Source: a virus (Duplodnaviria; Heunggongvirae; Uroviricota; Caudoviricetes). From it: a stretch of DNA of 33,922 bases. Position numbers and translations under genes: made by a program. Every line of letters starts with the position of its first letter. Position 1 is the stretch's first letter. The notes under the pieces are model-generated. The model was given only the letters and a program-made list of their open reading frames with translations, had not been told where the DNA came from and made no database searches. Below are positions 20,572 through 24,474 of this stretch, piece by piece. Where the stretch lies: IMG/VR virus record IMGVR_UViG_2630968639_000008, one strand, 5' to 3'.

Positions 20572-20606
20572 GGGGGCGTCTCAACGCCCCATTTTTAATA
20601 ATTTTT
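20572..20606 (+). terminator. Rho-independent terminator downstream of the porin gene
   Basis: Stem GGGGCG / CGCCCC (20573-20578, 20585-20590) followed by ATTTTTAATAATTTTT. Confidence 0.55.
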
Positions 20607-21879: not shown

Positions 21880-22042
21880 GACTCCTCCTTGCTGCCAGTC
21901 GCAACCATTTTTTATCAACCAAGCTGGCGGTATATCCGAGCAGTGTTGGTATTTCGGATGGCTTCAGCTCAGGCTTACGCTTACGACGATTTGGTACTCT
22001 GTAGATGTGTCCGTTCATGACACGAATAAGCGGTGTAGCCAT
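21872..22042 (-). CDS. ninE: NinE-like small basic protein
   Basis: 56-aa reading from ATG 22042 (overlapping the ybcN stop as TAATG); C-terminal [10 protein letters not shown] resembles lambda NinE. Confidence 0.5.
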   Translation of the reverse strand: MATPLIRVMNGHIYRVPNRRKRKPELKPSEIPTLLGYTASLVDKKWLRLAARRSHG

Positions 22043-22497
22043 TACGCCTCCTGCTTGTCGCGGAGCTGCTGGAACTCGCAGCTCTGCGGAATAGTCAGAT
22101 GGCAACCAATATTCATCGCCCAGGCTTCAACCTTACACAGGAAGACATACATCTCTCCGGTATCAAGATCGGAGGTATGGCGTAACGACTGGATAGTGGT
22201 GATATCACCGGTTACGACATCAACCAGGTCTTTGGTTTCATAACCGAGATATGTGTGTTTGAGAGCATCTTTTACCCAAGCTGGAGTGGCGAACGTTTTA
22301 CCCTTGCTGATGAGGTATTCACTGATTTCGCTGTACCACATGTGGCTGAGTGCATTCTGGGAAAGACTGCGTCTCTCGCGCCACGGTTTAAGCACCATGC
22401 GAAAGCATTTGCCGTCCTCCAGATAAGGCTGGATCTGCTGGCCGATAGCGGTGAAGTTGCCGCGATGTAATTTGATGCCGTCTTGTGAAAGGTTCAC
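22042..22497 (-). CDS. ybcN: NinB / YbcN-family protein
   Basis: 151-aa ORF with the RSLSQN motif, as in the NinB family; first conserved gene right of the AT-rich island. Confidence 0.6.
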
Positions 22498-22616
22498 GCT
22501 TCACCTCCGCAGAGGTCAAACGCTGGATGCAAAGAATTGCAGGTGCATTTCTGCATCTGTGAAGGGAGAAGAGAGTTTGGATTGTATGTGCGCATAAACG
22601 TCCCCGTTTAGCGCAG

Positions 22617-22649
22617 AAGTCACCGGAGGAGTTCAAACTCCGGTGACTT
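22617..22649. repeat. Perfect 12-bp inverted repeat (AAGTCACCGGAG ... CTCCGGTGACTT) with a 9-nt loop
   Basis: Seen directly; lies at the junction between the nin genes and the AT-rich cargo; no clean U-tract on either strand. Confidence 0.7.
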
Positions 22650-22718
22650 AATTATGACAAGTTGATTATTGAAAATCAAAAGTCATTTAAACAATAATGA
22701 TACCCCGCAAGAGATTTC

Positions 22719-23120
22719 TTATTTTAACTCATAGATCAGACAGTCAACGATTTCTAAACCATTTACCATAGAATTAGAAACGCGAACTTTACCATCGTTG
22801 ACTCTAGCAAATCCTTTTAACATTTTATAAATAAAAGCTGAATCCCCCTTAGCCTCAATTGCTTCTAATGGTATCGGCTTATACTTTTTTGATATGCTAT
22901 TTCTATTTATCTCACTGATTTTTCTATATATTTCTGCCGGTCCACGTTCTGAGAAGTCACTGATAACTAAAATATATCTCCAAGATAGATCTGGGTAATA
23001 AAACCACATTGCAGCATCAATAGTTAAATTCTGTAACTTGAGTTTTTTTAATAAAAATTGACCTGAGAATTCCATATCTTTTGTCAACTCTCTGCCGATT
23101 ACCAGTGTGCTTTTACCCAT
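22719..23120 (-). CDS. Hypothetical protein, downstream partner of the HEPN-like gene (overlapping, translationally coupled)
   Basis: 133-aa ORF; ATG at 23120 with GGAG 9 nt upstream; overlaps the upstream gene by 22 nt; AT-rich codon usage; no motif recognised. Confidence 0.5.
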   Translation of the reverse strand: MGKSTLVIGRELTKDMEFSGQFLLKKLKLQNLTIDAAMWFYYPDLSWRYILVISDFSERGPAEIYRKISEINRNSISKKYKPIPLEAIEAKGDSAFIYKMLKGFARVNDGKVRVSNSMVNGLEIVDCLIYELK

Positions 23121-23515
23121 TTCAAAACTCCAGAATTTTGGTCACCTACAGCATCAAACAATTGTTCGGCCATAGCTTTACTTATGTTATTGTCGTATCT
23201 AAATTGCTCGCTCCAGTCTTTAACGACCGACCAGTTAATCTCCAACGAAACATCATTTTTTGCGTCAGCAATCAAAATTTGATGTAAGTTGGCAATTTTG
23301 AGAAGTTGCGACAAATCATGAGTATATGAATCATTTACGACTTTTTTGTTTGGAAACTCATGTTGTAAAAATGACTTGGCAATACAGGCCTTCAATGCAC
23401 ATTCAACTGCATACCCACAAAGATAATATGCACCATGAAAAAAGCCATGATCAAGCAAGCATTTGGCCTCATTAAGCCTAGTGTCAGATAATGCTTCAAG
23501 GTCGTTTTTATTCAT
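23099..23515 (-). CDS. HEPN-domain-like protein (candidate toxin or abortive-infection nuclease)
   Basis: 138-aa ORF; helical pattern GAYYLCGYAVECALKACIAKSF, THDLSQLL and C-terminal RYDNN resemble HEPN four-helix-bundle proteins; AT-rich; TATAAT sits immediately upstream of the ATG. Confidence 0.55.
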   Translation of the reverse strand: MNKNDLEALSDTRLNEAKCLLDHGFFHGAYYLCGYAVECALKACIAKSFLQHEFPNKKVVNDSYTHDLSQLLKIANLHQILIADAKNDVSLEINWSVVKDWSEQFRYDNNISKAMAEQLFDAVGDQNSGVLKWVKAHW

Positions 23516-23979: not shown

Positions 23980-24474
23980 TCATTTCCAATTGCAAGACTG
24001 TGAAATTTTTTCCACAACCTTATCAATCTCAGACAAGTCAAACTCAACTACTTGCATAGTTGATCCATAAGGTTCAAACCCAAAAATAGCTTTTTTATGC
24101 TTAGCCAAGGTCTTTATAAATTGTATTGGTTGTGGAGCAAATGCAGAATCACCGCCTTCCCCACCACCCCAAACACTCTTGACCGGCTTTCCGCCATCTA
24201 ACCGCACTGTAATTCTTGGGTTGTCCGAACCCATATAATCATTGAATGATAAATAGGCATCTGTTTTGTTATCACTACAACGCAACACCAGTGAAGTTGC
24301 ACGATCAGTACCTGCTTTGTTATATGAATCTGGTGATAAATTAAGAGCCACAAAGTCAGTCTGGTCAGTCATTTTATTTATCTCAGACTTTGTTATCCAC
24401 GGCCCTAACTTCTCTACACCAGCATTTGCTGTAAACGAGGCACTTATGACAAAGGCTAAAATAAATTTTCTCAT
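23980..24474 (-). CDS. Hypothetical secreted/periplasmic protein (moron)
   Basis: 164-aa ORF with a signal peptide (MRKFILAFVISASFTANA/GVEK), AGGAGA RBS 8 nt upstream, own terminator; AT-rich. Confidence 0.6.
   Translation of the reverse strand: MRKFILAFVISASFTANAGVEKLGPWITKSEINKMTDQTDFVALNLSPDSYNKAGTDRATSLVLRCSDNKTDAYLSFNDYMGSDNPRITVRLDGGKPVKSVWGGGEGGDSAFAPQPIQFIKTLAKHKKAIFGFEPYGSTMQVVEFDLSEIDKVVEKISQSCNWK

Follow-up and report, generated by a model that had tools for sequence, protein, structure and literature searches.

Why does a single perfect inverted repeat stand at the head of the recombination genes of a tailed phage? The repeat (AAGTCACCGGAG-GAGTTCAAA-CTCCGGTGACTT; two 12-bp arms with a 9-nt spacer) occupies positions 22617-22649 of the virus record IMGVR_UViG_2630968639_000008 (Caudoviricetes; 33,922 nucleotides, the whole of which is called the window here). 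The original prediction, made from the sequence of the window, placed this palindrome at the junction between a cargo operon and the nin genes, and proposed a factor-dependent terminator or processing site insulating the cargo, a protein-binding palindrome or a recombination scar. Our analysis firmly supports a different answer: the palindrome encodes the 5'-terminal stem-loop, here called H1, of a leader RNA transcribed from the own promoter of the downstream gene module.

The palindrome and the module it belongs to

The genes on both sides of the palindrome are all on the minus strand. In the direction of transcription they are O, P, a ren pseudogene, a VasI/TagO-like gene, a HEPN gene and a 133-codon open reading frame (ORF), then the palindrome, followed by orf33/ylcH (33 codons, ATG at 22595), ybcN, ninE, ybcO, rusA, ylcG and the Q antiterminator gene. 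The repeat is exactly as first described, with its 9-nt spacer and no U-tract. It is the sole perfect inverted repeat of at least 12 bp with a short spacer in the window; the palindrome is unique there even when 3 mismatches are allowed, and matches occur in 0/100 shuffles. The predicted stability of the hairpin also holds. The full palindrome folds with -19.6 kcal/mol as RNA of the minus (sense) strand and -21.0 kcal/mol as RNA of the plus strand (z-score about -5 to -6), and covariation, presented below, identifies it as an RNA-level element. With 12 bp, 8 of them G-C, the full stem has the GC-rich character of an intrinsic terminator stem-loop. No T-run follows the palindrome on either strand, and a terminator scan gives no call at this position.

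Rfam exhibits no family at the gathering thresholds for the palindrome or the leader, and nothing meaningful at E-values up to 10. The hairpin sequence was not found in the literature searched. The plus-strand spacer is T-loop-like, and a tRNA or transfer-messenger RNA remnant was considered and rejected: ARAGORN gives no call, the spacer of the Escherichia coli K-12 homologue has no equivalent of the T-loop A58, and the G.U bias described below indicates the other (minus) strand. Arms of 10 bp (GTCACCGGAG/CTCCGGTGAC) with other spacers (GAGG, ATGGTGGAGC, ACTTGCCTT) are found in six IMG/VR loci (L028, L065, L067, L068, L083 and L089), which are unrelated viral contigs without the promoter or the ylcH leader.

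Homologous loci were gathered in two ways, by the palindrome arms and by a conserved stretch inside ylcH, the latter having no bias for the arms. In the collected loci the conserved block starts at the hexamer TTGATT, while the sequences upstream of it represent 83 unrelated contexts among 200 loci. On this comparison the palindrome is part of the downstream ylcH-ybcN...Q module, and the mosaic junction lies about 30 bp further upstream, by the -35 box. In isolated phages, among them phage 82, the matching sequence comprises ybcN, orf33 and the palindrome and ends at window positions 22680-22683. The palindrome is thus not at the nin/cargo junction, where it had been placed: the sequence shared with phage 82, DLP12 and over 100 further phages extends across it and stops about 30 bp upstream (mosaic boundary at 22680-22684, adjoining the -35 box). 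The original prediction had proposed to look for the palindrome at other module junctions; it recurs at one place only, the start of the ylcH-ybcN module, irrespective of the upstream sequence.

Promoter and transcription start

A promoter scan identifies TTGATT-17-CATAAT on the minus strand, with the -35 hexamer TTGATT at 22674-22679 and the -10 hexamer CATAAT, preceded by TG in the window, at 22651-22656. Both hexamers are annotated as putative -35 and -10 in the phage 82 entry X92588. Among 85 distinct promoter versions, the -35 hexamer is TTGATT or TTGATA in 73/85 and the -10 hexamer is CATAAT in 66/85, the others being AATAAT, TATAAT, CATACT or GATAAT. The 17-nt spacing is constant even where the spacer sequence wholly differs.

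This ylcH promoter is active in the DLP12 copy of K-12. A transcription start site at NC_000913.2 571542, with 247 reads and an upstream sequence ending ...CATAATTATGTCA, is assigned to ylcH (Kim 2012, Table S1); the neighbouring start sites of ybcM and ybcQ have 2 and 3 reads in the same study. In K-12 DLP12, transcription thus starts within the left arm of the palindrome, at the A of its GTCA, seven nt after the -10 hexamer. Transferred by homology, the predicted start in the window is the A at 22644 (minus strand), likewise the 7th nt beyond the -10 hexamer. Two or three outer pairs of the palindrome (AAG/CTT) precede this likely start, so that the hairpin in RNA from the local promoter has only about 7 bp (-10.5 kcal/mol), with 22644-22638 paired to 22628-22622 and the loop at 22637-22629 (UUUGAACUC).

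A second inverted repeat, TTGAT-N8-ATCAA (22662-22679, both strands), covers the -35 box and half of the promoter spacer. It is exact in 56/85 of the distinct promoters and within one mismatch in 71/85. A subgroup of loci with a different, extended -10 promoter (L138, L139, L160, L221 and L236) retains it further upstream. Because this repeat is not transcribed from the ylcH promoter, any constraint on it acts on DNA. It is a candidate operator, and probably the real protein-binding site of the promoter. Its half-sites equal those of FNR, but their spacing is 8 here and 4 in FNR. The same region overlaps a divergent promoter-like match on the plus strand (TTGAAA-18-AATAAT, 10/12, 22669-22698), which is directed into the 3' end of the cargo ORF and lies partly within window-specific upstream context.

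Covariation of the H1 stem and conservation of its loop

The 108 distinct leaders exhibit 41 versions of the H1 stem, nearly all with 8-14 contiguous pairs. Examples are GTCATCGGAG/CTCCGGTGAC, TTGCTGACGG/CCGTCAGTGA, GTCGCAGTCGG/CCGGTTGCGAC, TGCCGCCGG/CCGGCGGTA and GGTTGTCAG/CTGACAACC; the loop across these versions is CCUGAACAA or a close variant. In an alignment of 47 distinct sequences and 11 stem pairs, 91.5% of the cells contain a standard pair, against 81.3% in shuffles (0/500 reach the observed value) and at most 44% with slid partners. Double changes are found in 9/11 stem pairs, and the cells changed on both sides number 55, against 17.8 expected (0/500 shuffles). RNAalifold finds the H1 helix independently, with compensatory changes in 7/7 of its pairs. 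A phylogenetic artefact is unlikely given the 41 stem versions and the slid-partner control, although the covariation statistics rest on related sequences. The proposed recombination scar is excluded by this stem covariation.

The mismatches and the ends of the stem indicate which molecule is paired. The non-Watson-Crick cells of the transcribed stem, read on the sense strand, are 50 G.U and 6 A.C, so that only the sense (minus) strand is selected to pair. Conservation is poorest in the two outermost pairs, upstream of the mapped transcription start (unpaired in 15 and 7 of 47 sequences). In 107/108 leaders the stem follows the -10 hexamer at a distance of 0-5 nt; an RNA initiated at the 7th nt accordingly has no unpaired 5' nucleotide and a stem of typically 7-8 bp. 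The loop exhibits the opposite behaviour to the stem. Every stem position varies in the 47 aligned sequences, whereas the loop core T-G-A-R-C is invariant. The motif Y-U-G-A, corresponding to the YUNR U-turn motif, is present in 207/208 loci, and the loop length is kept at about 7-10 nt across leaders. By-eye inspection for a pseudoknot between the loop and the downstream leader gave only inconsistent 4-bp matches, and inspection of the loop for a -10-like, sigma-dependent pause element gave no xAxxxT match; both candidates were rejected.

Free arms, a fixed centre and strand-specific wobble are the opposite of the pattern expected from a dimeric DNA-binding protein. As far as sequence comparison can tell, selection acts on the sense-strand RNA hairpin, not on a protein operator. 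A dimeric repressor bound to the palindrome, centred at about +12 and blocking the promoter, is what the phage 82 annotation in X92588 ('possible regulator-binding site') would imply. The palindrome covers +1 to +26, a classic location for a repressor site, and the perfect 12-bp symmetry in the window exceeds the transcribed part. However, some of the 41 arm versions share no base (GGTTGTCAG/CTGACAACC in L124), it is the spacer that is conserved instead, the mismatches are strand-specific (50 G.T versus 6 A.C), and the TTGAT-N8-ATCAA repeat of the promoter is a better operator candidate. We consider a DNA operator at the palindrome very improbable, and with it the protein-binding function first suggested for this site.

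An RNA 3' end downstream of H1

The curated Term-seq data of K-12 include two 'orphan' 3' ends at NC_000913.3 572349 and 572350 on the plus strand (...CTCCGGTGACTTCTG^C; Adams 2021, Supplementary file 1). These correspond to +31/+32 of the K-12 leader, 5-6 nt past the palindrome and 8 nt past the 7-bp RNA stem. Their equivalent in the window, placed by homology, is at 22613-22614 (minus strand). No other curated plus-strand 3' end is found in the K-12 ylcH-quuD stretch (Adams 2021). The score of the 3' end is low (about 1.6-1.9 thousand versus 10^4-10^7 typically), and such a low-scoring end is equally compatible with exonuclease trimming and intrinsic release. Following the 10-bp stem GTCACCGGAG/CTCCGGTGAC the tail reads UUCUGCGC, and following the 7-bp RNA stem it reads GACUUCUG; in either case it falls short of the U-run expected of an intrinsic terminator (at least about 5/8). 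In the divergent members L124, L125, L132 and L146 the post-stem tail is neither U-rich nor conserved. An elemental pause consensus (G-10/Y-1/G+1) predicts U30, which is one or two nt off the mapped end; we do not claim such a pause.

Possible functions of H1

By analogy with 5'-terminal stem-loops of known function, the most likely role of H1 is that of leader protection and nuclease barrier, possibly combined with the display of a recognition loop. We see about an even chance that the palindrome is the template of a stem-loop that protects the 5' end of the ylcH-ybcN-ninE-ybcO-rusA-ylcG-Q leader and blocks 3'-exonucleases. The sigma-70 promoter (-35 at 22679-22674, -10 at 22656-22651) would start the leader RNA near 22644, with its first nucleotide already paired. 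A paired 5' end hinders RppH and 5'-end-dependent attack by RNase E, as shown for the ompA 5' hairpin. H1 would act as a protective stem-loop of this type, and by blocking 3'-exonucleases it would leave the 31-32-nt hairpin fragment observed by Term-seq. The leader so stabilised would be poorly translated, one downstream hairpin (H2) burying the ylcH AUG and another (H4) burying the ybcN Shine-Dalgarno sequence. As expected for such a protective element, the stem lies at the primary 5' end (the K-12 start is inside the left arm), and its pairing is conserved rather than its sequence. A protective stem-loop explains why the stem is tightly coupled to the start site, why its sequence is free and why a hairpin-only RNA fragment is observed. 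Since protection alone leaves the invariant Y-U-G-A-R-C loop unexplained, the loop is probably subject to an additional recognition step by an RNA or a protein.

Several observations weigh against protection as the function of H1. A pure stabiliser needs no loop conservation. The K-12 promoter is active, yet an inserted promoter is reported to be necessary for adequate expression of rusA in K-12 (Curtis 2014, PMC4118853), a combination that suits attenuation no less than stabilisation. Instead of being a decay intermediate, the mapped 3' end could have arisen by termination or pausing. Both the transcription start and the 3' end come from K-12 DLP12, where the loop is CCUGAACAA, and the window loop UUUGAACUC differs from it at 4/9 positions. 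Finally, the outer AAG/CTT nucleotides pair perfectly though they are outside the predicted RNA, which has no explanation unless read-through transcripts from upstream matter.

Protection competes chiefly with a promoter-proximal attenuator or pause site: H1 would stop or stall the polymerase at about +31, leaving the nin genes and Q near silent unless a factor, perhaps one recognising the loop, permits passage. Such an attenuator would account for the need of an inserted promoter for rusA, which is reported as poorly expressed from its native context despite the strong ylcH start (247 reads). The 8-nt distance between the RNA stem and the 3' end, the sole plus-strand end in the K-12 operon, is canonical for intrinsic release; the linker GACUUCUGCGC is well conserved in most variants; and the lambda terminator tR2 is at the same map position. 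Against this, the tail GACUUCUG contains only 3 U and the terminator scan gives no call, the divergent members keep the hairpin with a U-poor tail (CUGAGCAUC in L124, GGGGUUGC in L132), the score of the 3' end is low, and the site, looked up by gene name, is absent from the Rho-dependent regions of Adams 2021. On balance we hold attenuation to be a possible but rather unlikely explanation.

The same rank, that of a tentative alternative, is given to H1 as a recognition hairpin, whose stem serves to display the invariant U-turn loop to a trans-acting RNA or protein of the host or the phage. This partner would control stability, translation of ylcH-ybcN or elongation. Such a function is compatible with 5' protection and may add to it. 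It draws on the contrast between the invariant T-G-A-R-C core and the variable stem, on the near-universal YUNR motif and on the restricted loop length; the resemblance of the loop U-GAACA-A to the lambda boxB loop U-GAAAA-A is a lead only. On the other side, neither the window nor the flanking phage DNA (up to about 10 kb) contains a complement that co-varies with the two main loop types (host small RNAs were not searched), the closing pair and the fifth loop base resembling boxB vary (UUUGAACUC, CCUGAACAC, AUUGAGCCC), no boxA is seen and no known RNA family matches.

A more inclusive proposal, which we regard as speculative, is that H1, the linker and H2 together would form an undescribed promoter-proximal regulatory RNA. 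A partner reading the U-turn loop would gate polymerase or ribosomes toward the recombination genes and Q, and the 31-nt RNA would be the product of the off state. Combined with the TTGAT-N8-ATCAA repeat, the leader would then allow Q to be expressed by a second route that depends on neither N nor pR.

The original prediction named first a factor-dependent terminator or processing site that separates the cargo (the HEPN pair and the VasI/TagO-like gene) from the nin genes in early-right transcripts. One part of this idea receives support, as the K-12 homologue is followed within 5-6 nt by an RNA 3' end, and read-through RNA would form the full 12-bp hairpin (-19.6 kcal/mol). In some relatives, moreover, the cargo is located between two copies of the leader. 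The insulating part does not agree with the data: the element is not placed between two transcription units but starts at about +1 of the promoter of the ninB-like operon, and it follows the downstream module through the 83 unrelated upstream contexts, many of them without cargo. Pairing is best kept from the transcription start inward and not in the outer pairs exclusive to read-through RNA, and in K-12 the start of the upstream gene has 2 reads versus 247 at the local promoter. Several contexts already contain a separate canonical hairpin with a T-run upstream of the promoter, which would make a second insulator redundant. An insulating function of H1 is therefore quite improbable.

Canonical intrinsic terminators of this kind (e.g. 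GGCCTCTTCGGAGGCC followed by TTTTT) end 5-25 nt before the promoter in L123, L137, L152, L163, L124, L125 and L004. From its sequence and position, this upstream element is a tR2-like insulator, distinct from the palindrome. In L027, a tandem array (GTTTGATT)n of at least 8 copies runs into the TTGATT -35 hexamer.

The leader downstream of H1

H1 is followed by the linker, GACUUCUGCGC in most versions, and then by H2 (22589-22615, minus strand; -14.4 kcal/mol, z-score -5.5). H2 presents the Shine-Dalgarno sequence GGGGA in a GGGA (GNRA-type) tetraloop, and its 3' arm contains the orf33/ylcH AUG (22595). Ten covarying versions of the H2 stem are observed, all of 10-11 bp and with the same loop, one of them with a GUG start. 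H2 looks like a translational gate for the ylcH leader ORF.

Two further hairpins are predicted on the minus strand. H3 (AUGCAGAAAUGCACCUGCAAUUCUUUGCAU, 22557-22526) lies inside ylcH, and its inner part UGCA-GAAA-UGCA exhibits a compensatory change in L124. The Shine-Dalgarno sequence of ybcN, GGAGGU, is sequestered in H4 (22523-22496). The leader fold containing H1-H4 has a z-score of -3.4. A weak terminator-like scan call is located inside ylcH at 22555-22538 (minus strand). The ylcH nucleotides around 22496-22557 are far more conserved than the ends of this ORF. One possibility is that ylcH serves as a leader or coupling ORF; another is that part of it is an RNA element. The leader as a whole looks built for tight translational control, with ylcH as the coupling ORF.

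Gene context and cassette duplication

The 33-codon leader ORF orf33/ylcH (22494-22595, minus strand) is annotated in RefSeq and in phage 82, and overlaps the ybcN start (GUGA). ybcN (22042-22497, minus strand), the first long gene of the operon, encodes a distant NinB/Orf-family recombination mediator (Curtis 2014, PMC4118853). Q (21022-20624, minus strand) is located at the end of the operon. A DLP12-like prophage of E. coli STEC409 matches the window with 100% identity. A 1.6-kb probe including ybcN has matches in 2,959 of 5,426 complete E. coli genomes, but the cargo arrangement of the window is present in only 190 of the 5,426.

Upstream of the palindrome, the HEPN-domain gene (23099-23515) and the 133-codon ORF (22719-23120), both on the minus strand, overlap by 22 nt, and the latter has no Pfam hit. 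The two may form a toxin-antitoxin or defence pair of the HEPN type. Upstream of the pair come a VasI/TagO-like lipoprotein gene (23980-24474) and the frameshifted ren. At the other end of the operon, a strong 3' end is found in K-12 together with a region of Rho termination, both antisense to quuD/ybcQ (NC_000913.3 574331-574367, minus strand; Adams 2021). A matching GGGGCGTCTCAACGCCCC plus T-run terminator is present at about 20573-20590 of the window (plus strand), downstream of a porin gene.

In L008, L021 and E. coli genomes of the GF47 type, the cargo is located between two copies of the cassette promoter-H1-H2-ylcH' (2215-2480 and 4516-4780 in L008). This cargo consists of a P22AR/Ant-like protein together with the HEPN gene and the 133-codon ORF of the window. 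Copy 1 of the cassette carries a compensatory variant of H1 (GTCATCGGAG/CTCCGATGAC) and a ylcH with a premature TAG. The duplication suggests that cargo may be inserted through recombination within the leader and expressed from the leader promoter. It follows that the cassette is able to head other genes and is a preferred recombination point.

Implications

According to the usual description, the genes of the nin region are transcribed passively from pR, and N overcomes the terminators there. The module described here, carried by more than 100 phages and prophages, places the genes from a NinB/Orf-like mediator through RusA to Q under a promoter of their own, experimentally active in K-12. 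The covariation of H1 is among the clearest one could hope for in a 30-nt element. The analysis corrects a database annotation of 1996 (phage 82, X92588), adds a candidate cis-regulatory RNA motif absent from Rfam, and offers an explanation for an 'orphan' Term-seq 3' end of K-12. It provides testable handles on the silencing or activation of Q and rusA in lysogens, rusA being silent in K-12 despite the active upstream promoter, and on why mosaic boundaries and cargo insertions fall preferentially at the head of the module.

Comparison with known systems

Among the closest known systems, the nin region of phage 82 (X92588; orf33-orf151-orf56-orf96-rus-orf45-Q) contains the same element. Its annotated repeat_region corresponds to window positions 22619-22647, and the -10 and -35 positions are identical. 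X92588 proposes protein binding at the repeat, whereas the comparative data presented here favour an RNA stem-loop. Its putative promoter is now backed by the published start-site and Term-seq data.

In lambda, the intrinsic terminator tR2 between ren and ninB has the same map position as H1, directly upstream of a ninB/orf-type gene, and both are GC-rich hairpins with an RNA 3' end just downstream. However, tR2 has a canonical TTTTTATTT tail and no promoter, whereas H1 lacks a U-tract and is joined to a promoter of its own. Moreover, several relatives of the module possess a tR2-like terminator in addition, upstream of the promoter.

The putL/putR sites of HK022 give rise to cis-acting antiterminator RNAs (PMC9378689): a lambdoid promoter is immediately followed by about 55-70 nt of nascent RNA containing two stem-loops. 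Only this general layout is shared with H1 and H2, which together span 56 nt from +1. H2 differs in carrying a Shine-Dalgarno sequence and an AUG, which put RNA does not. The 22-36 kb region of HK022 exhibits no YUGARC-loop hairpin and no sequence or motif similarity, and homology with put is not supported.

The purine-rich loop U-GAACA-A resembles the boxB loops of lambda and P22 nut sites (U-GAAAA-A, U-GAAGA-A, U-GACAA-A). In contrast to boxB, H1 has a loop of 9 nt here (7-10 across leaders) on a 7-12-bp stem, and its closing U-A pair and fifth base vary. Nut sites follow pL or pR and include boxA, whereas H1 is at the start of the nin operon; as it starts at +1, there is no room for an upstream boxA, and H1 does not qualify as a nut site. 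Anti-small RNAs of the AgvB/AsxR type are located downstream of pR', not at the palindrome, and were rejected as relatives.

YUNR U-turn recognition loops are reportedly a feature of the antisense-RNA systems hok/Sok and CopA/CopT, in work attributed to Franch in 1999. H1 shares with these systems a conserved Y-U-N-R on the 5' side of the loop and a stem of variable sequence.

The hairpin of the ompA 5' untranslated region, said to have been studied by Emory, Bouvet and Belasco in 1992, is reportedly a 5'-terminal stabilising stem-loop of an E. coli mRNA. Stem-loops of the ompA type, on which the stabilising role of H1 is modelled by analogy, resemble it in starting at the first transcribed nucleotide without a single-stranded 5' overhang, and in leaving the sequence of the stem free as long as it is paired. 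H1 goes beyond them in two respects, as its loop is conserved too and a short RNA consisting of the hairpin only is detectable.

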